DNA of 64,000 nt from Phyllosticta citribraziliensis (GCF_038025025.1 NW_027117339.1:186001-250000); one strand, 5' to 3'; shown: positions 31,351 to 48,555, counted from the first letter of the stretch. Numbers and translations: made by a program. The notes: a model not told the origin generated them from the letters alone.

Positions 31351-32164
31351 CTACGAGACGGAAACGGTAAACTCGGAGACCGTCAGCACAGCATCGCTGC
31401 CAGTGAAGGGCTCAGTGCCAGCCTGGACAGTCGTGAGGTACTGGCTGGTGCTGAAGCCCTGGTTCTGCTCGAGGTACGAGAAGAAGTCCATGAGATCGGC
31501 GCTGAACTCGGTGGTCTCGCTGTCCGCGACAAAGCTGTAGACAGTGGTGCTGCCGTTGGGGCCGCTGTACAGCTTGAAGCTGACGCCGCCGATGGTGGTG
31601 GTGGCGACGGCGGAGCCGGTCGAGGAGATGGGGCCCGCGCCGCCGAGGGCCGCCAGCCAGATCATGATTTCGTACTCGGAGTCGCCGCTGGCGGACGACG
31701 AGGTGAACAGGTCGTAGGCGACGTCGGCGACGGGGGTGCCGCTGTACGTGTACGAGTACTTCATGGTGGTGGGGATGGACGAGATGCTGCTGAGCTGCTT
31801 GGCGGTGAAGGAGAGGGCAGCGTTGGCGTACGACTTGACCGACGACGAGCTGCCACAACGACTACTGTCAGTACCCACGTCTTGCGAAACAAAAAGAGAA
31901 AGGGGAGTCAACGTACCCGCCGGACCAGCTCCAGTTGGTGTGCCAGGCAACCGTCTCGCCGTCGAGGCTGTCGACGCCGGTGCACTGCGACCCGGAATCC
32001 GCGTTGCCCTGGCCCCACAGGTTGTTGTAGACGGTGTAGCTGCCGGTCTGGATGGTGCCGTACTGCTCGCACGTGTCGGCGCGCTTGACGAGGGTGCGCG
32101 AGGGGGCGGCCGACGCGAGCGACGCGGCGCCAGCAAGCATGGCAGCAGTGGTGGAAAACTTCAT
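31351..32164 (-). CDS. GH12 xyloglucanase/endoglucanase, secreted
   Basis: Signal peptide, [55 protein letters not shown]; one intron. Confidence 0.95.
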
Positions 32165-35070: not shown

Positions 35071-36922
35071 TCAAGCCGCCCACCACCACTGCGGCGTCGC
35101 CGGCTTCCCGTCGGCTTTGGCGGTATCGGTCGGCGTCGATTCTGGCGTCGGCGACGGAGTCGAAAGAGAAACCGGCGTCGGCTGTGGCTTGGCCGCCTCT
35201 TTTAGTTCAGTCTTGGGCTTTTTTTCATCCGCATCGCTCGACTTGTCCGAGCCCCACAGGAGATAGCTCAAGCCCGAACCAAAGCCACCGCTGCTCTTGC
35301 TCTCTTGCTCGTCCTTCTTCGGCGCCTTGCATTCTTCGCCTCCCTCGATGAAGCCGTGCTCGTTCGAGTGCCCCGTGCGAAACGCATAACGTTCCCAGCT
35401 CATGCCGCGGCGGCGGCGGCCGTCGCCCTTGCGCACCGTCTCGCCCTGCACAACTTCGGTCTGGACCTCACCGTCGTAGTCGTACAAACGCGGCTCGAAA
35501 TCTTGGACAGAGGCCCAGGCGTGAATCAGGCGACGCCAGTAGCAGGCCTCGGCGGCAGGCGTGAGGTAGCGGTCGCGGAAAGTGGCGACAGACTCTGCGG
35601 CAATGGCGCGGGCGTAATCGGGGCGAGCGACGAGGTCGTCCATGACGGCCGGCAGGTCGTGAAAGTCGCGTTCTACGTGGATGTAGTTCTGCAGGGCTGT
35701 CAGTGAGGCGCTTGGCTGCTGGGATGTCGTCACAAACCTGACGCGACCCTTCGGAGCGGAGCAGCGGGTAGTAGTGGGCAACCCAGTCGAGCTCGTGGAT
35801 GACGGGGACGCTGTTGCAGTTGTGGAGATATCGCAGGCGGCCGCTCCAGGTGTTGCCTGCCAACGTCAGTTTCAACACACTCAACATTCGAAACAAACTT
35901 ACCCTCCGTGTGCGCGACAAACTTGTACTTGCAAAAGTCTTGCATGGGGATAACATTGTCGCGCGTCCTCCAGTCAATGGACTTGACGTCAGACCAGGAG
36001 TGATTGTCCGCCGCCTCAACGAGCGCCTTGCGCAGCCCACCGTTGACTCCCAAGCTTCCGCGCCAGGCCAACTGGGGAATCTTGTCGTCAAACGGGACTT
36101 CCATCTCCTTGACGTCATCGCGGAATTGAGGGTACGAGCCAACGGCGTCATCAGGGTAGGCCCACCCGTCAAAGTCCGGGACGACCCACATGTTTTGGTT
36201 CGTCTTGTGCCGAGCCCAGGTCCAGCGAATCTTGTCCGGGGAGCCCGCCTCGCCACGGTCGTGCAGGTCCAGCACGAATTCAATGTTTGGCAGCTCGCGC
36301 GGGTTGGGAATGGCATTCATGGCGCGGTGCAGCGAGGCAAGCGCGGCAAGACCTCGCGAGCGGTCAGGCTCTCCTTTGGTCTCGTTGACGACAATCAGCT
36401 GCGACGTGTTAGTTTGCGCCTGGCTACTAGTAAAGCGTACGGACCTGGCCGTTGTAAATCATGGCGTGGAATTCGCTGCGCGAGTTGGGAATGTCCTCCT
36501 CGCCCGCGCCAATGCGGACATCCTTCTCTTGAATCTTGCGGTCCTTGAAGTTCTCTCTTGCCCGGTCGACTTCTTGAAAGAGGCCTGGAAATGCCGCCTA
36601 CGTACGTTAGCAACGCCTTGAACCAGCCGAAGAAACCTACATCGCACTGGTCGTCCGTGAGGCCATAGTTCAAGGCATCCTTCTCCGGGTCGAAGCGCCA
36701 CCAACTGACGTGTGGTAGTTTGATTTTGCGAAAGCCGGCGCTCTCGAGGTGCGGTTTTGCCTCGTAGGAAGCCAGACCAATCAGAAAGACGGCAGCGGTG
36801 ATGGCGGCGGCAGCAAACAGCATCCGGCGGGGCGGAGCTCGTGCCTTTGGGCCATGGAGGGTGGGCGACCCGAGCGGGGTGTAGCGCGGAGCAGTTGGAG
36901 AGAGCAAGCTTTTCCAACCCAT
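35071..36922 (-). CDS. CAP10 / glycosyltransferase family 90-like type II membrane protein
   Basis: N-terminal TM, LPNIEF, VPDFDGWAYP, LAWRG, DFCKYKFVAHTEG|NTWSGRLRYL, FRDRYLTPAAEACYWRRLI; four introns. Confidence 0.88.
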
Positions 36923-38080
36923 GGTGCAACAAAAGCCAAAAGGTGTGGAAGAACAAACGGGCTGGGGGCGACTTTTAGATGCAGGAAATGTCGGTAGGCA
37001 GCGGGCCAGAAGCAGTGATATCAGGGCGCAAAAACGATAGGGCCACGGCACACGGACAAGCGTCGATCATAGGGTGGCGCAGGACACGGCGACGGCAGCC
37101 CAGGTCAGACCAAAGAGGCCAGAGCATGGTGGAGCGGAACAAAGGGAGCAGTGATAGCGGACGGTTTGTGGCGTGCTCGCAAAGGGTACCCATGGCAGGG
37201 CAGAGTAGCAACAGGCTGTAGCAGGCTCATTTTAGCGATACGGGTCGCGCCTTTCAGCCCTGTCATGGCAAGCCGGCATGTACGGTACTGTACATATTCA
37301 AGCACGGAGCGTAGCTTAGCAGGTGGAGCATATACGATGGGTCCCGGCCTCTTCGGCACGGCGAGTCGAGTCGAGTCGAGTTGGTGGCTGCTGCGATGCG
37401 AGCTGTGTCTCGGTACAACGCGCCCGTGTCAGCAGTCAAGTCAGCCGCGAACCAACCACTCAGCTCGTATCTGCGGCGACGTGAGGGGTACTCAGCGGTG
37501 GGAGGCCAGGTTGGGCCGGTGGTGGTGTTGATGTGAGGTCCAAACAGGCTCTGCTGGAGCCTGCCAGATTGGACGCCGAGCCAAGCCGCTGGATCCGGGT
37601 CTCCCGCCAACTGCCCTCGGATCCATCGCATGTCGACGCGAACAGACGCTCAACACCGACTCTCTCTGCATCGCGACTCCGAAACCACCATGCTGCTCCG
37701 CCGTCTGCGTCCATCTCTGCCGTCGCACAAAGACCTCTGCCGGCCCCCATTGTCCCCCCGACATCCTCTGACGTCACGGGGCTGACTGACTGACACCAAC
37801 ACTGCCCCAGACGCATTCCTCACACCAGCCACTCTGTGTTTAGATCTTGCGCCTCGCCGTTGAAGCAAATATACCCAGTCCTGTCAAATCCTCGATGAAA
37901 TTAGACCTTTTCTTTCCTATATCCCTCGATACTGACCGCACCCTTTGCATGATCCGGTACCTTGCATCACTAGCTTCGGCTCCAAAAACAGGGCCAATCC
38001 ACCGTCCAAGACCTCGAGACTACAGACCTCTACTCTGAATCAAGACACAAAGATCTATACTACCTGGACTCGCAGTCAGC

Positions 38081-38872
38081 ATGCCACAAACATTTGCGAC
38101 AAAGTCTCTCACCCCTTCCTCGAGCAACCGGGCCACAGCCGGCCACCATGTCAACGCCACTACCACGTCGTCGTCCCAGGCCCCAGCGGCAACCCCACAA
38201 ATCCACATAGCCTCCTCCTCGCCAACCCCCTCGCCTTCGCCCGCAACAGCGTCCCAGGCCTCCTCGCGTGCGCCCTCTCCTCGTGTCGCCGGCCCTAGCA
38301 CCTCGCAGCAGCACACCCGCCGGCCCTCGACGTCGCCCTCGCCTTCGCCTTCGTCCACGTCGCGGCACCACCGTGACTTGCCCCCCGATGATGCCGAGCG
38401 CCTCCGCGCCGCCAACGCTGGCTTCGCGCGCGCCATGGCCGGCACCTCGGCCGTGCGCGCCCGCGCAAAGAGCGACACAGGGCCCACGAGCGGCGGCGGG
38501 AGCCCCAAAGCCTCCATATGGGAGCGGCCGGGGAGCTCGCGGCGCAGCGGCGAGGTCGACGACGAGCTGGAGCGGCGGTGGGGCGCGTGGGAGAGGGGCG
38601 AGCTTGCATCCGGGTCAGGGTCGGCGTCGGACCGCGTGGCCAAGCCCAAGAGCACCAAGGCCGAGTCGGGCGGCACCAGGAGGGGCGGCGGCGGGACTGT
38701 CATTCTTCGGGATCAGGAGGGTGATGGTGCTGCTGGGCGCCCGCCGCCCCAGCCGGCGCCCGGCTTGCTCAAACGGCTTCGCAGCAAGATTGTCAAGGAT
38801 AAGGATCGCGTCAAGGAGATGGCGGAGAGGGCAAACGACCCGAGTCCGGATCACAAGTACGGGCCGTACTGA
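38081..38872 (+). CDS. Hypothetical low-complexity S/P/G/R-rich protein
   Basis: 263-aa GC-rich ATG-to-TGA ORF; no recognised domain. Confidence 0.55.
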   Translation: MPQTFATKSLTPSSSNRATAGHHVNATTTSSSQAPAATPQIHIASSSPTPSPSPATASQASSRAPSPRVAGPSTSQQHTRRPSTSPSPSPSSTSRHHRDLPPDDAERLRAANAGFARAMAGTSAVRARAKSDTGPTSGGGSPKASIWERPGSSRRSGEVDDELERRWGAWERGELASGSGSASDRVAKPKSTKAESGGTRRGGGGTVILRDQEGDGAAGRPPPQPAPGLLKRLRSKIVKDKDRVKEMAERANDPSPDHKYGPY

Positions 38873-41414
38873 TGACGAGAGGCGGCGAGTGGCAGAGAAT
38901 AGAAGGGCGCATGAGACACATCACGCGAAAAGAGAAGAGAGGGGATATGAGAGACGAAACGCAACGACGTACAGAGAAACGCGGAACACGATGCTCACGA
39001 CGCCATGTCCAAAACGGGGAAATGCAAAAGGGAACAGGAAAGGGGAGTTCAGTCACATCTGGTCTTTTCACGCACACTCTGCACGCAATCTTATCCAGCT
39101 ATCAAATATCAACCATCCATTCTTTTCTTTATCCAACTACCAAGACTCGATGATCTTCCCGCCATGCCAGGTGCCACGTATCGCGCATACCCTGACAGCC
39201 AGCCAGGCAGGCACGTTCTCGGCTTCTTCACGCGAGGAACGTGCTATTTGAAGCTGGTTTCGCTTGTATTTTCCGCGTCCGCGTCTGCGTCCTCGTACAT
39301 GCACGTAAGACGACCTGCCTGCCTAGGTACTTAGCTGTGTCTCCACCACCGCCGTTTACAGCCGGACGCTACCACCAAAAACACTCCGTCGCCGCGGCCG
39401 CCTCGGCCCCCACATTATCTACGCACGTTTCTCTACCAACATAAAGTAAACGGCGGAAGTTGAGACTGCGGAGAACTAAACGACGAATGAGCGGCCTGTC
39501 TGTGTCCTCCACGTGGTCGAGGCTGTTTTGGGTATGGGCAAGGTATTTGAGACGCACGCATATCCTACTCTGCACTTCCCATTTCCCCTGTCCAACTACC
39601 CTGTCTGTCTAGACGACTGACGGCAGCCCAGTCTTCGGAACACTGGGTGGCCAGACAAGTCGGGTTCACATACACTTGTTTTCCTTCGCGTCGTTCGCGC
39701 ACCCACCTCTCTCTCTTCGCCCCCTCTGCACTGGTATGTGTTGGTGATGCGGGAAGATGGTGATGATGAGCGCTACTCTGGCGCGTTGAACAGTATCTCC
39801 ATTGTCCAACCACGTCGCCCGTTGTTCCCCTCCACATAACGTTCCGCATTCGCCTTCTTGGGCGCGTCTGCCGGCGCTGCGCTCCACCAAACGCGAACGC
39901 CAAAGTGCGGAAGATCCAGCGGACTCGCTCCGCAGCAGTCGGAATTGATCAAAAGTATCTTCCTCTTTGCGGGCCATAGTCGACGTCCCAGCTGCGACTG
40001 CAGCCGCAGAATTGAGTCAAGAGCATGGTATTTATACACAAGGAAGGGAAGAACAACCAGCCCGCTGCTCGTGCCATCGACCGCCTATCACACGGAGGTC
40101 TGGCATGTGGAGCGCTGGAGCTGGCGTCGCATGTGAGTGGCGGCTGGCTTTCAGTATTCAAGTCGCTGCTGTGGCGCTTGGATTCTGTTTAAGTCGCTGC
40201 GGAACTCCTAGATTCTGTTGTCAGACACGGTCTTCCTGCCTTCGGTAGCAGAGAAACGCTCAGTCCGTACTCCTTCTCGCCTCGAACACCCCGTGTACTG
40301 GGTTTTGTTTCTGTTGCGCTTGGTCTCTTAGTTTATTCAGTTTCTCGGGTCCTGCGCGATGAGATGGTGATGGACGGCGCAGAGGTGAGATGATGAGTGG
40401 CACTATTATCACTCAACGGCGTCTCCTACAATAGACAGGCCGTCAACCCCACAGACAGACTTCTCCCAGTCCACGTTGAATCCGTACGCCCGCGCGCAAA
40501 AAAAGTACATGAGAATCGCAATTTTTTATCCAGCCGCGCTTACTGCGGACAGGACTGTGCTGTTGAAATTGATTAGAAGTGGGAAGGATGCAGTTTTTAT
40601 ACAAAACTGCAGAGCGTACGCCCCTTTTCACGGGATGCTTGAGTTGTGATGAGTCGCGACCGTTTGATCCGCGAGGAAGCTGCGGCATGTGAGCGGCGGC
40701 GGGCTTTGAGTATTCAACCCTCTGCTGAAGCTCCTAGACTCCTTCATCTCACACAACCTTCCTACCTTCTTTCTCGGATCGTGGATAACGCGGCGACTCT
40801 GCTCGCTCTTTTTCGAGAGCCTTCGACGACTGGTGTTTGTTTCTGCTGCGCTTGGCCTGTCATGACTGGCGTAGTTTCCCAAGGCCTGCGCGATGGAGTG
40901 ATGCTGATGGTCAGCACGAAGGCAAAGGGGACGCGCGATGGCAGAATCGTAAAATGAAGGTCTGGCTGCTAGTCTCGTCTTACTTGCGGTAGTGGATTTT
41001 CTCGTGCGCTGTTCTGTGCTGCGCTGCTCTGCTCTTGTCTTGCTTGCTGTGTTGGTAGGTAGGTAGGTTGGATCAGAGGACGCTAGGTGTGACGGGACTG
41101 CGGGCCACATGGTCGATCCGTAGACTCGATCGACGCGCACAGAGTCAATGAATGGAAAGGAAAGAGAATGATCGCATTGGCTTGACTGATGAGCTGTCCA
41201 AGACGAACTGCCGCAACCTCCCATAATCCTCCGAACCATCAAACCCGGAGCCCAGGATCCAACCAACTCTCCCAATCAGAACGGAAAACTGAGAACCTCC
41301 ACCCCTGCTCGAAATGCTCCCCCCAAATTGAAGAAACCGCAGCACAAAGAGGTTTGGCGGGCCAGCCAGGGCAATGTGGTGCAAAGGGAAACGAATGAAA
41401 GAGAGACAAACTTA

Positions 41415-43310
41415 CCTGATCATTTTGTCCGGGCCAGTTTGTTGTTGTTTGAATTGCAAGGTCGTTTTTGAAGCGGCCACCTTTGACGCACAAGCAGAGT
41501 GTGCAAGAGCATCTGTCGGAGGCAGCCAGAGTTGATGTCGGAAGCTGTCCTGCCACTGCGGCAGTGAGGGCTGCTGCTTGCTGGACAAGTTCGACGTCGA
41601 TTTGGAGAGATTTGAGAGGATGAAGGGAAGTAAGTGCGCATTTTTTGCAACGACGGCGATAGACGCCGATGCCCAGAGCGCTGAACTGACCCCCCGAAAT
41701 ACTCCAGCAGTGGAAGCTGAAGACGAGGGTAACTTGCTCCGTAGGCCGCAGAGCGGATCCTACTTTTAGCCATGCTATCGCGGGAACTCATATGGCCATT
41801 TTTTTAGTTGCGTAAAGGAAGACGCGAGCGCGTTTTCCCTCTGTGGCTTTCGCACCGGAGACAGGATGTGCGCTGAACACCTCCACAGTAGTCGGGGAAA
41901 GAAACTCGCCTGCCAGGCACTGTTGTACTTCCTGCGTTTGCGATTGCAGGCACTTCGCAGACCTTTTGACGGGTCCGCAACTCGTGGAAAAAGCAGCATT
42001 CCGGAAGAAGGTGATTTCCACATCGTGACATCGGAGGTCCCGAGTCGGCTTGAAGGGAGCCCAAGTGTTGATACCGCCGATGCTCGCATCAGAGTTTGCC
42101 GTGCAGAATGGTCTTGACTCCGGTCAGTTGTATGATCTGAAACAAGGGTGGAAAAAGCACTTGCCTGACCACTTTGTCTGAGTAGATGGATCAAAGCTTG
42201 TTGTTGACACAGGTGTCGCCTGTTTTTGCAGACCCAATCTTGCTGATGCTTCATCGGGTTGTGTTTTGTCGAACATGGGCAAGAGGGTAAGGTTGAGAGG
42301 TAGATGAGTGCGCATTTTGGACCGGCGGGACCACCTGACCCCGGCGGAGTGTGAGCGCTGAACACATTGTTTTTGCGATGTTTGCTGATTTGGAGGCTGG
42401 ACGAAAGTTAGCACAACATGGAGGGCGTTGGAGTTTGACGGTGACCGCTTACCATTTGCAGACACAAGTTTTGCAGTTGTTCCGAATTGCGTGTTGTTAA
42501 GGAAGGCAGAGAAGCCGGAGTTGAATGGTTGATGAGTGCGCATTTTGTACCAGTACCAATAGGCACAGGCTGCTGTGAGCGCTGAACACATGTTGTTTGT
42601 GATGGTTGCTGATGCAGAAGCTGACAGCGAGTTAGCACAACTTAAATGGTGTTAAAGTTTGCGAGCGGCACTTACAATTTGTAGACACAAATTTTGCTGT
42701 CGTTTCGAATTGCGTAGTGTTGAGGAAGGCAGAGAAGCCGGAGTTGAATGGTTGATGAGTGCGCATTTTGTACCGGGATCACCTGGCCCCGGGGGGATTG
42801 TGAGCGCTGAACACATTGTTCTTGCGATTGATTTTTGTGCAGAGGCTGACGAGAGTTAGCACAGCTTGACCAGAGAGGAGGGTCGAGGGTACGTACATTT
42901 TCCAATGTTTTGCAAGCTCTGGAGCGAGAGCCAGGCCTGACACCGGGAGACATGATCATTGTTGACTACACGGGCGCGTTAGCATGCCCGAAGAGCAGAG
43001 AGCGTAAACGACGACGAGTGAAGCGCTGGCCCGCCATGACCTGAAGAAAGGAAGCCTGCAGTCTACTGTCAGCAAAGCGAGTGCTCAAGGTGAGGAGGAA
43101 GGTTGAACGCCGGTTCGGCGACAGAGGCTCCAAAAGCAGGGCGCGGCGGGCGCGGGTCTCAAGGGAAGTACGTCGTCCGAGAGCCAAAGTGTTGCCTGAA
43201 GAGCTGGAGAGAATCCAGTGGGTTGAACGAGACAGGGCGATGGCGAAGCTGTCGAGAGAGAGGGCAGAGCTCAAGTGCGCGTTGCTGTCGGGTCCCGCTC
43301 GCCGCATGGC
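41415..43310 (-). ncRNA. Putative multi-exon transcript, probably non-coding, carrying five conserved hairpin cassettes
   Basis: Chain of canonical minus-strand introns. The reading frame is not conserved between repeat copies. Cassettes at 41633, 41827, 42307, 42535 and 42758. Boundaries approximate. Confidence 0.45.
42225..42896. repeat. Three tandem ~225-bp units, each a minus-strand exon plus intron
   Basis: Units at about 42225-42452, 42453-42675 and 42676-42896. Minus-strand introns 42397-42452, 42621-42675 and 42846-42896, each GTA(A/C)G..GCTAAC..CAG. Confidence 0.9.
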
Positions 43311-43605
43311 TCGCTGGGGAGGAGGGCGAGGGAGGATGATGAAGAGGAGAGGAGCGCGGGCGGAGGGTGGAGGGTTTTTGTACTGTCGCGTGGGCGGTGC
43401 GCAGGCGGAGCCAGCAGGCAGGTGGAGGGAGGAAGGAGCGCCGCCCACCAGGACAAGCAACTCGAGGCAACAGGATCACGGCGAGTCGGGCTTCCTTGGA
43501 GACAAACACGCTTAGACATTACGATAGCATGCTACGTACCGTATCTACTGAATTCCCTTGGAAAATACCTTCAACACGCGCCGCCGCAAATGGAAGATGC
43601 AAACC

Positions 43606-45793
43606 TCACGCCGTGCTGAGGACAACCACACTCCACGCAGGCAGCTCCAGCGTAAAGACACCATCGGCCGCCTCGACGCTGCCCGACACCGGCACGACCG
43701 TGTCCGGCGCCTCCAGCGTGTTCGCGTCCGTCTCACCCCCAGTCAGCGTCGTCGTCGCGGCCGAGCCCGTCGCGCCCTCAATGCTCACACTGACGCTCTG
43801 CACGTCGGCGCCGTAGTTTGCCAGCTTGACGTAGTACGCACCCGACGACGAGTCGGCCGTCGCGCTCCAGTAGACGGGGCCAAACGCCGTGTCGCTGGTG
43901 ACCTCGCGCGTCGTGTCGCCGTGGTTGGCGGCGAAGATCTGCTCGACGTAGTAGCTGGTGCTCTTGACCACGCCAGTCGGCGACGCGTCGTAGCTGACAA
44001 AGTCGGGCACCCACTGCGTGCCGTTGACGTGCTGCAGCGTCGGCGCGTACGCCGCCAGGCGTATCACGTCCGAGTTGCGCTCGACGCCAATCAGGAAGAC
44101 GGCCTCGGACACGGCGCCCGCCAAGTACGGCCACTGCTGCTCGTCGCTGTCGCGGTTGGCGTACTCGCCGACGAAAATGGGAATCGACCGGTTCCAATTG
44201 TCCCACAGGTTGAACTGCCCCACCAGGTCGTCGCGGGCGGAGTACGTGTGATAGTCTTGCCACGCGCCCTCGGGGAACGGCGACGGCAAGCAGTCGGCGT
44301 TGTTGGTGGATGCGATGATGATGATGTCCGGGTACGCGGCTTTGATGGCGTCGTGGAAACGCTGGAAGCGTTCTGGGTATGAGTCGCAGCCTCCGCTCAG
44401 GTTGTCCTCGTTGCCAATCTCGACGTATGGGATTGGAAAGGGTTCAGAGTATCCAAGAGCCACGCGCTGCGCCCCATACGTCGTTGAGCTGTCACCGAGG
44501 AGGAACTGCCGGCTGTTAGGGATGGGCCCACAGAGGATTTACAAATGTCTCACCTCGAGCTCATTGAGGACGTCATCAATGTACGGCTGCAGAGCGTCGC
44601 CGGTAAGCGGCGTGTTTCCACCCGAATTCAGAGCAAGGCCAGCCCAGACTCCCAGGATGTTGAAGAGGTTCATGTCTTCTGCCCACTCGAGGTATTCAAT
44701 AAGACCTACGCAAAGTTAATCATCTACTCGAAGGGCTTGTCCGAAATATCAACATACCAAGCCAGTCAGTGTTTGGGTAGGTCCAATCGCCTGCATTTAT
44801 CAGTGTCTTGTGCTAATTGCAGGGAGCAGACAGGAAATGTACCCTGTCGTCCAGGCCTCTCCTCAACGGGTCCAATCGTCTCGTTCCACTTCCACCGGTT
44901 GTCCTCGCTCTCGCCCTCCCTACAAAAAGTCAGTAAACCATAGTGATAAAGAGGAGAAGTACTCACAAGTTGTTACCACCCGGAAACCGCAAGAAGCCGC
45001 CTCCCAGCTGATCCAAAACTTCCGCAATGCGCGGGTCCAAGCCATTGGGCCTATTCTTAAACGTCGGGGGGTACAGCGCTACAAGGTCAAACCAGACAGT
45101 CTTGCCTGCAACCGCGCTGGCGTCTTCCCACACAACTTCCCAGACATTGTTGCCATCGGGAGCCGTAGCATTGCTCTCCAGGGCCGTCGTCTGCACGTAG
45201 GTCCAGTCGTCTGCGGAGCCGGTAACGTCGACGCTGGCACTGCCAAATACAGTACCGCTGCTGGCACCGACGAGCCGCAGCGTCAGCGCGCCGCTAAAGT
45301 CGCCCTTGAACCAGAAACTCGTGTTGTAAGTCGCCGCGACCACGGGGATGCCCCAGTAGCCTTCGTTGCTGAAGCCGGCCTCGCCTGTCGCGTCTGAGGG
45401 CACCGTCACGGCCAGTGAGTGCGTGATGGCGCTATTGAGCGGCGTCGAGGAGTCGACGGCCAGGCTAGCGCTGCCAATGGCTGCGTACGCCGTCAGGTTC
45501 TGGTCGTCGCCTTGGAAGCCGTTGTTGCGGAGCAGTTGGCCGTGGATACCGCCGTCGCCCGAGTGGTTAATATCCTGTTGGTGCCAGGTGAGCGGGATTT
45601 CTCGCGGGCAGAGGCTCTTTGTCAGATTGTCAAGGAAAGGTCAAGTGCGCACTTCAAACATGATTCCGATTGGCGTCGAACTGGAACTGTTTCCGCCGGA
45701 TGTGGCTACGGTCAGGTTGATGGAGGCGGCATGGCCGATCAACGAAAGAAACGGCACGAGGGCCGCCAGCCCAGATGAACGAGGGACCTTCAT
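43606..45793 (-). CDS. GH51 alpha-L-arabinofuranosidase, secreted
   Basis: Signal peptide, [71 protein letters not shown]. Confidence 0.95.
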
Positions 45794-47460: not shown

Positions 47461-48555
47461 TCAAACCATGCTCCACAAAGGCTGCGGCAGAGGGCGCCGC
47501 GCCCTGGCTTGGTGACCTGATTTCAGCTTGCCTTCTTTGATGGCAATGTATGCTTCTCGTTTGGCCGGATTGCCTGTCGTGATGGACCAAGTGTCCAAAT
47601 TGTAATAGGTCGCAATCGAATGAACCAACCATCGCCTGCGAGGCTGTTAGACGCAATCTGGCAGCAATCAGACATGATTCACCCAAAAGCGCCGCTGCGA
47701 TCACCAACAAGACTATCAAACACCATCTTGTCGCGCCGCAGCGCTTGCTCGGCTGCCCGCATGTCATTCATTTGGCCGTTCCGCCCAACAAACACAATCT
47801 CTTCGTCATCGGAATCGAGATCGGCCAAGCCATCCTGCTCGTCGCGCCTCTCCTTTTCTTCCCAGTTCTCGATGAACTTGCGCACTTCTTGTTCAATGTC
47901 TTCGAGGAGGTGCTTGGCGGCGCGCTTTTGGCGGAGCCGCTCTCGCAACTGCTTGAGCGCTTTTGCAGCTTCTTCCTCCTCCTTGCTCACAGCTGGCTTG
48001 TTGGCCTTTTGGTTCTTGTTCAGAGACTTGGGTGCGAGCTGTGCGTCCCATAGAGGAGCCAGATAATAGGGGACAGTGTGAACGGGATACGTGGGACGGA
48101 TTTCCCAGTCGCTCGGAAGAGGAGGCTGCGCGTGTGGGTTGTTCAAAAGACGGTCTGCTCATTGCCTTAGCCACGCACTGGACTTGTCAAGGTTTCGTTC
48201 AGCGCGCACCATTCTCCCAGCGGCGCCTCTGGCGACTTCCCTCCTTGCCTTTGAGAAGGGCTTCGCGACGCTTCAAACTGTCCCGGCGGAGCGGCTCTTT
48301 GCGACGAGTATAGGCCGAGCGCACAAGCTTGGACGCCGTGGCTTCGGTAGGCTCTGGCTGGGGAAGAACGTGGTCGTCCAGGGGGATGTCCAAGGTCACA
48401 GAAGTGCCACGGATGGTTGGTTGAGAGGCCGTAGAGATGTTGACCGAAGCCAAAGCGCGCGTCGCCTCCTCCGTCCAAGCCTCGACGTCGATGGCGGCCT
48501 CGACGGCATCGTCCGAAGGCCTGTAAATGTCCGGCACTTCACCGTAGATTGCCAT
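47461..48555 (-). CDS. R3H-associated N-terminal domain protein
   Basis: RRDSLKRREALLKGKEGSRQRRRWEN, NNPHAQPPLPSDW, DSDDEEIVFVGR, RWLVHSIATYYNLDTWS; two introns. Confidence 0.85.

Follow-up and report, generated by a model that had tools for sequence, protein, structure and literature searches.

Five bipartite modules in a spliced, most likely non-coding minus-strand RNA of Phyllosticta citribraziliensis

Several long non-coding RNAs (lncRNAs) are built from repeated modules, among them the Xist A-repeat, Drosophila hsr-omega and NORAD, and multivalent binding is thought to result from this arrangement. Moreover, ciRS-7/CDR1as is an exonic circular sponge RNA with about seventy sites. A locus that recalls both was analysed in Phyllosticta citribraziliensis, within a stretch of 64,000 nucleotides (GCF_038025025.1 NW_027117339.1:186001-250000; hereafter the window, with positions counted from its first letter) that is eukaryotic and fungal in character. 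The locus comprises five cassettes between 41633 and 42816, each formed by two short conserved blocks (island 1 and island 2) around a variable middle, which an earlier note had taken for an array of structured RNA hairpins. What defines the repeat-module lncRNAs, a transcript without coding signal in which several conserved short cores stand between freely diverging spacers, was found here as well, but there is no sequence relation to Xist, hsr-omega or NORAD, the host is a filamentous fungus, and the modules are five and bipartite, three of them being separated by short spliced introns. The preferred reading, to which we give about an even chance of being correct, is that of a lineage-restricted, spliced and most likely non-coding minus-strand RNA with five bipartite modules, in which the islands would act as binding sites and of which a part of the molecules would be circular.

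Contigs from two public sequencing runs belonging to two studies (X1 and X2) were placed on positions 40800-43600. The RNA label of these runs is a guess, and the only reason for treating them as RNA-derived is that four canonical introns are missing from their contigs. The segments skipped by the contigs were 42113-42164, 42397-42452, 42621-42675 and 42846-42896, with plus-strand ends CT..AC or CT..GC; on the minus strand, they are GT/GC-AG introns of 51-56 nt with donors of the GTAAGT-, GTACGT- or GCAAGT-type and CTAAC/CTGAC branch sites. Since CT..AC on the plus strand corresponds to GT..AG on the minus strand, the RNA is made from the minus strand and the cassettes lie in exons. The resulting five exons, of 69, 170, 168, 232 and 697 nt, add up to 1,336 nt, and all five cassettes were found to be exonic in the splice-junction map, all with one orientation and one succession of islands in the direction of transcription.

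In the direction of transcription, exon 1 (42897-42965, minus strand as for all features of the RNA, 69 nt) has its 5′ edge at an acceptor TAG (42965/42966) that follows a branch-site-like GCTAAC, and it receives a back-joint described below. Intron 1 (42846-42896, 51 nt, GTACGT...GCTAAC...CAG), skipped by one contig in each of X1 and X2, leads to exon 2 (42676-42845, 170 nt), which is tandem unit A and contains cassette 5 (42754-42816), with island 1 at 42799-42816 (18 nt), a 28-nt middle and island 2 at 42754-42770 (17 nt). After intron 2 (42621-42675, 55 nt, GTAAGT...GCTAAC...CAG), exon 3 (42453-42620, 168 nt) is tandem unit B with cassette 4 (42531-42591; island 1 at 42574-42591 and island 2 at 42531-42547), and it is followed by intron 3 (42397-42452, 56 nt, GTAAGC...GCTAAC...CAG). 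The 5′ part of exon 4 (42165-42396, 232 nt) is tandem unit C, and cassette 3 (42303-42367) is contained in this exon, with its islands at 42350-42367 and 42303-42319, respectively. Finally, intron 4 (42113-42164, 52 nt, GCAAGT...CTGAC...AAG), of the GC-AG type and skipped in both runs, precedes exon 5 (41416-42112, 697 nt), which one X1 contig (record 3) covers without gaps and which ends at the donor CAG/GTAAGT (41416/41415). This last exon harbours cassette 2 (41827-41878) and cassette 1 (41633-41686), both diverged copies in which GTTCAGCGC is kept together with AAAACGCGC in the former and AAAATGCGCAC in the latter.

Pattern counts and a profile search placed the five repeated cassettes where the earlier note had seen them, and at a level far above chance. 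In particular, GCGCTGAAC occurred in 8 copies in the window (0.94 ± 0.93 expected, with a maximum of 3 in 100 shuffles), five of which were located on the plus strand inside the cassettes (41678, 41870, 42355, 42579 and 42804), and the remaining three (10910, 31499 and 48197) had no partner block. The motif AGYGCGYWTTT was present in 4 copies, at 41633, 42307, 42535 and 42758, compared to 0.31 expected, and the cassette at 41827 carries AGCGCGTTTT, which is one base off this motif. Furthermore, when a profile of the five copies was used to search the window, those five alone were matched, with E-values from 3e−16 to 4e−21, the next match having an E-value of 0.25. The unequal spacer lengths that had been reported were also borne out, as the GCGC-to-GCGC distances were 43, 41, 45, 42 and 42 nt.

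A 223-nt tandem repeat of 2.3 copies with 80% matches, spanning 42350-42863, contains cassettes 3-5, and the intron-exon map together with the alignment of the units shows that this repeat is a duplicated exon-plus-intron unit. All three pairs of tandem units were identical at 18 of 18 positions of island 1 and at 17 of 17 positions of island 2. In contrast, identity between units A, B and C fell to 59-69% in the exon 5′ flank and to 50-68% in the middle, which was alignable between copies, and the sequence past island 2 was 57% identical between unit C and either A or B. The middles thus differ, as the earlier note had said, but their divergence does not exceed that of the exon sequence elsewhere. 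Since the middle diverges like its surroundings and the islands are invariant, it is the islands that stand out, not the middle. Both cores, GTTCAGCGC and AAAA(T/C)GCGC, were retained even in cassettes 1 and 2, which are otherwise unalignable, and at the RNA level they read GUUCAGCGC in island 1 and AAAA(U/C)GCGC in island 2. Moreover, the 1,336-nt RNA has 10 GCGC tetranucleotides, and every one of them falls in a cassette, one per island and always as GCGCWC. The view of the cassettes as repeated elements within an expressed RNA holds, and the difference between the blocks (100%) and their neighbours (50-69%) supports constraint on the former. Repeat-induced point mutation was considered and rejected, as only about one in two differences between units was a transition.

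The same comparison bears on a region without function, that is, a lineage-specific transcribed region in which a recent tandem duplication took place and the identity of the islands is due to chance or to local gene conversion. One duplication does account for three of the five copies, and no relatives were found in the collections searched: a metagenome scan with the bipartite pattern returned 8 loci with a single match each, a chance-like result close to the number estimated by hand from the information content of the pattern, and blastn found no further similarity (best alignments of 12-17 nt). However, the remainder of the alignment between the exons of units A and B shows about 28% differing positions (21 of 76 nt), a rate at which 66 block positions without any difference would have a probability of ~1e−9 by our own arithmetic, and an exact 9-mer core was kept in the two otherwise unalignable copies. 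On this balance, we consider a lack of function rather unlikely.

Besides the four introns, one contig in each of X1 and X2 joined 42965 to 41416, going back 1550 positions. This back-joint falls exactly at the acceptor GCTAAC..TAG/ and the donor CAG/GTAAGT, as is found at the junctions of exonic circular RNAs, it has the minus-strand polarity of the four introns, and it points to a circular or exon-repeated form; an exonic circle produced by back-splicing would be 1,336 nt long and would bear all five modules. The same kind of joint would be expected from trans-splicing with exon repetition or from a locus duplicated in tandem in the source genome. Other contigs pass through the last donor unspliced (41179-41445 in X1 and 40800-41429 in X2), and a linear form therefore exists. 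The likeness to ciRS-7 thus lies in a joint at canonical sites between a downstream donor and an upstream acceptor, and in repeated conserved short sites with variable surroundings; the differences are that five sites are present here, that the circle is a putative one based on assembled contigs and that a linear form is found as well. No inverted repeats of at least 14 nt that could drive back-splicing were detected within 41000-43500. In the parts of the literature available on the Phyllosticta citribraziliensis transcriptome and on fungal circular RNA or back-splicing, the locus was not treated among the matches listed.

A more radical possibility is a dedicated fungal circular-RNA gene, in which the leader would consist of nothing but a branch site and an acceptor, the last donor would lack a forward partner and the 1,336-nt circle would be the main stable product. 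Its five bipartite GCGCWC sites would then serve to titrate or scaffold a small RNA or an RNA-binding protein, so that the circle would be a fungal equivalent of ciRS-7, and a scarcity of stops in all frames (described below) might reflect ribosomes circling on it, the length of the circle being a multiple of 3, plus 1. Among the contig joints of X1 and X2, there was no forward joint from the donor at 41416, and no upstream donor was spliced into the acceptor at 42965. To our knowledge, no small RNA complementary to the islands has been described. Taken as a whole, this proposal is very doubtful.

Under the preferred reading of a modular RNA with binding-site islands, each module of about 170-190 nt would carry two invariant islands, with GCGCWC centres 41-45 nt apart and freely drifting sequence between them. 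Three of the modules would have arisen by tandem duplication of the exon-plus-intron unit, and the two in the last exon would be older. A protein or a complementary RNA may bind the islands as repeated sites recognized by their primary sequence, so that the transcript would offer a five-fold multivalent platform, like repeat-bearing lncRNAs, instead of an array of hairpins, and some molecules would be back-spliced from 41416 to 42965. If the islands are conserved binding sites, the locus would be a rare case, for a filamentous fungus, of a modular lncRNA built from repeats, perhaps a circular one, for which two invariant motifs of 17-18 nt, with five occurrences each, would provide an experimental handle. 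On the other hand, without conservation of the islands in sister species, it would be a lineage-specific transcript of little general interest.

The earlier note had proposed hairpins with a conserved base and a variable top that still pairs. Folding energies of whole cassettes were compared with 200 dinucleotide shuffles per cassette and strand, giving z-scores of −1.49, −0.55, −1.38, −0.15 and −0.83 on the plus strand (mean about −0.9) and of −1.39, +0.03, −0.51, −0.82 and +0.55 on the minus strand. For the middles alone, the mean z-scores were −0.20 (plus) and −0.88 (minus), with Stouffer z-scores of −0.45 and −1.97, respectively. RNAalifold gave consensus energies of −12.3 kcal/mol (plus) and −11.0 kcal/mol (minus), with several pairs broken and with positive covariation terms, that is, penalties, on both strands (+0.68 on the plus strand and +0.12 on the minus strand). 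In addition, the global fold of the 1,336-nt RNA reached a z-score of −2.06 (60 shuffles), and the five cassettes adopted differing structures in it; a hairpin of the second island and a GCGC kissing contact between islands, sought by eye, were inconsistent across copies. Each cassette can thus fold, as had been stated, but no better than dinucleotide-shuffled sequence, which is the outcome that the note itself had named as speaking against its hairpins. A structured hairpin or microRNA-like precursor was discarded on the same grounds, with energies not below those of the shuffles and a consensus helix without covariation, and a telomerase RNA was discarded because no permutation of CCCTAA is present in the RNA.

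Box C/D small nucleolar RNAs (snoRNAs) carry a C box (RUGAUGA) near the 5′ end and a D box (CUGA) near the 3′ end, and resembling boxes had been pointed out in the cassettes. On the plus strand, TGATGA...CTGA was indeed present in copies 4 and 5, with the boxes about 50 nt apart, and CTGA in all five copies; AGATGA was found in one further copy and nothing similar in the other two. The resemblance ends there, as the minus strand is the one transcribed, 3 of the 5 copies have no C box, with about 55 nt the copies are shorter than is typical of eukaryotic C/D RNAs, and no covariance model was matched, so that a box C/D snoRNA was rejected. The failure to match any known RNA family was reproduced, with no Rfam match at the gathering score in the whole window; at an E-value of up to 5 over 41100-43200, the sole match was mir-933, at chance level (17.6 bits against a threshold of 100), and no snoRNA appeared.

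These data also decide on the reading in which each cassette is an independent plus-strand structured RNA, a C/D-box-like or guide-like hairpin with a compensating top. The base stem AGUGC/GCGCU does pair on the plus strand in 4 of the 5 copies and includes a single U-G pair in the remaining one, two cassettes reach z-scores of −1.49 and −1.38, and the boxes of copies 4 and 5 could be added to its credit. However, splice polarity puts the RNA on the minus strand, although the G-U pairs of the base stem lie on the plus strand, and the cassettes are not separate small-RNA genes, as they sit in exons of one spliced transcript. Together with the mean z-scores, the positive covariation term, the C box in 2 of the 5 copies, the absence of Rfam matches and a middle that drifts like its flanks without any sign of selection for diversity or pairing, this makes it the least supported of the rival explanations, and an extremely unlikely one.

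The weakness of RNA structure would also fit a DNA-level explanation, a homotypic cluster of palindrome-centred sites (AGCGCT and TGCGCA) for a DNA-binding protein inside a transcribed region. A 6-bp palindrome is present in 4 of the 5 copies of each island, none of the 10 GCGC occurrences lies outside the cassettes, and the 41-45 bp between paired sites correspond to about four helical turns. However, the islands are asymmetric and, with 17-18 nt, far longer than the palindromes, the five cassettes keep a single orientation and order in the middle of exons of an expressed RNA, and we know of no factor for sites of this kind. A cluster of DNA sites is therefore judged distinctly unlikely.

Regarding coding potential, one frame of the spliced RNA is open for 324 codons and contains an open reading frame (ORF) of 292 amino acids, identical at 292 of 292 residues to a deposited protein (P0001) recorded as 'uncharacterized protein J3D65DRAFT_195586 [Phyllosticta citribraziliensis]'. 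A search for homologues returned the protein itself only, with 294 candidates from 5.8 billion proteins, and again itself only in 1.84 billion representatives; no Pfam family was matched, and in a single-sequence AlphaFold2 model, the mean predicted local distance difference test score (pLDDT) was 38.1, with no residue reaching 70. The codon log-odds were −0.105 in the frame of the ORF and −0.05 and −0.06 in the others, compared to +0.11 to +0.27 for seven real-gene ORFs of the window, and the G+C content at third codon positions (GC3) was 0.47, compared to 0.63-0.86 in four of those seven. Moreover, the ORF traverses the cassettes in different frames, and the differences between repeat units were mostly non-synonymous in all three frames (e.g. 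1-3 synonymous vs. 4-7 non-synonymous). Given that no homologue, Pfam family, codon bias or confident fold was found, we infer that the RNA is most likely non-coding and that a non-coding RNA has probably been annotated by mistake as an 'uncharacterized protein'. A pheromone precursor or a precursor of a ribosomally synthesized and post-translationally modified peptide was also rejected, as a three-frame translation read by eye contained no CaaX-stop, signal peptide or repeated peptide in a common frame.

Several observations weigh against the preferred reading of a non-coding RNA with binding-site islands. The minus strand was assigned from splice-site polarity and nothing else, the constraint on the blocks was deduced from paralogous copies within one gene, and gene conversion limited to the islands may be an alternative reason for their identity. 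We know of no binding partner of the repeats. Furthermore, a 4-bp minus-strand stem, recognized post hoc, closes the invariant island 1 loop UUCAGCGCU and was paired in 20 of 20 cells, with 3 of its 4 pairs changed on both sides; only 2 of 500 shuffles were as good, and slid controls paired in at most 70% of cells. Its energy was of −0.7 to −1.9 kcal/mol, with pair probabilities of at most 0.009 in context, and the comparison included only three independent sequences, so that it is a lead only to some RNA structure that may exist at island 1. Finally, the RNA is poor in stops. A total of 12 stop trinucleotides were counted on the sense strand, compared to 27.8 ± 3.9 in 1000 dinucleotide shuffles (minimum 17), and an open frame of 324 codons was reached by 12 of the 1000 shuffles. 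TAA, TGA and TAG occurred at 0.32, 0.49 and 0.51 of expectation, being the 1st, 3rd and 5th most depleted trinucleotides, and TGG at 0.99. The stop depletion and the open frame could mean that translation matters after all.

Such figures (stops at 43% of expectation, with TGG undepleted) would favour a young orphan protein gene, from which the 292-residue protein or several short ORFs would be translated and in which the cassettes would be repeated peptide segments, and a gene model is indeed in the public record. As in orphan (de novo) fungal genes, an uncharacterized protein is annotated and no homologue was found in the collections searched, but the codon bias, GC3 signal, synonymous excess, Pfam family and predicted fold (mean pLDDT 38) are all lacking, and the cassettes are read in different frames. 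Moreover, the three frames share the depletion evenly (4, 5 and 3 stops), unlike the pattern of a single coding frame; the RNA was the stop-poorest of 1,254 samples of window and strand and had the lowest ratio of observed to expected stops in a set of 628 such samples, but segments near 31401 (minus) and 38101 (plus) come close, and other segments of the window had 6-7 stops in their worst frame. A protein-coding origin of the cassettes is hence considered very unlikely.

Beyond its last donor, the RNA is probably continued in its linear form by a 3′ tail at 41179-41415, with the minus strand deduced for it, which is covered by the unspliced contigs (X1 record 2, 41179-41445, and X2 record 7, 40800-41429). 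Upstream of the first acceptor, a leader with the branch site and a polypyrimidine stretch was provisionally delimited at 42966-43055. The cover drops beside that acceptor from 68.4 to 4.21 in X1 and from 662 to 40.7 in X2, X1 has no cover at 40988-41175 and 43056-43431, and the mean depth, a single value per contig, seems to climb toward 41179; these drops and gaps are at most weak hints of transcript ends and are not evidence on the circular share. In X2, a contig at 43061-43325 has sequencing-adapter letters directly before 43061, and this points to a discrete RNA end immediately upstream of the cassette RNA leader. A further X2 contig, of 2,910 nt, extends from 41429 leftward past 40800, so that in X2 transcription either goes on from the tail or enters it.

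Cassette 1 read on the plus strand (41621-41708) has the appearance of a textbook intron (GTAAGT...CTGAC...CAG). Since a contig spans exon 5 gap-free, this intron-like look is not used, and a plus-strand spliceosomal intron or introner-like element was ruled out, with no gap over 41416-42112 and no joint of plus polarity. Also on the plus strand, an open frame of 77 codons (41536-41769) runs through cassette 1, with an ATG-started ORF of roughly 55 amino acids inside it.

Regarding the neighbourhood, the ORFs at 40628-41275 (minus) and 38039-38872 (plus) had no Pfam match. On the other side of the locus, a gene for a GH51-type alpha-L-arabinofuranosidase adjoins at 43496-45640 (minus), with PF06964 (4.4e−26) and PF22848 matched on the ORF at 43606-44538, and the end of one X1 contig at 43496 is preceded by a stretch of T, as a minus-strand mRNA would show at its poly(A) site. 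Further away, both on the minus strand, an R3H-associated N-terminal domain (PF13902, 1.9e−05) was found in the ORF at 47679-48158, and a glycosyltransferase of family 90 (PF05686, 9.1e−06) in the ORF at 35730-36458.

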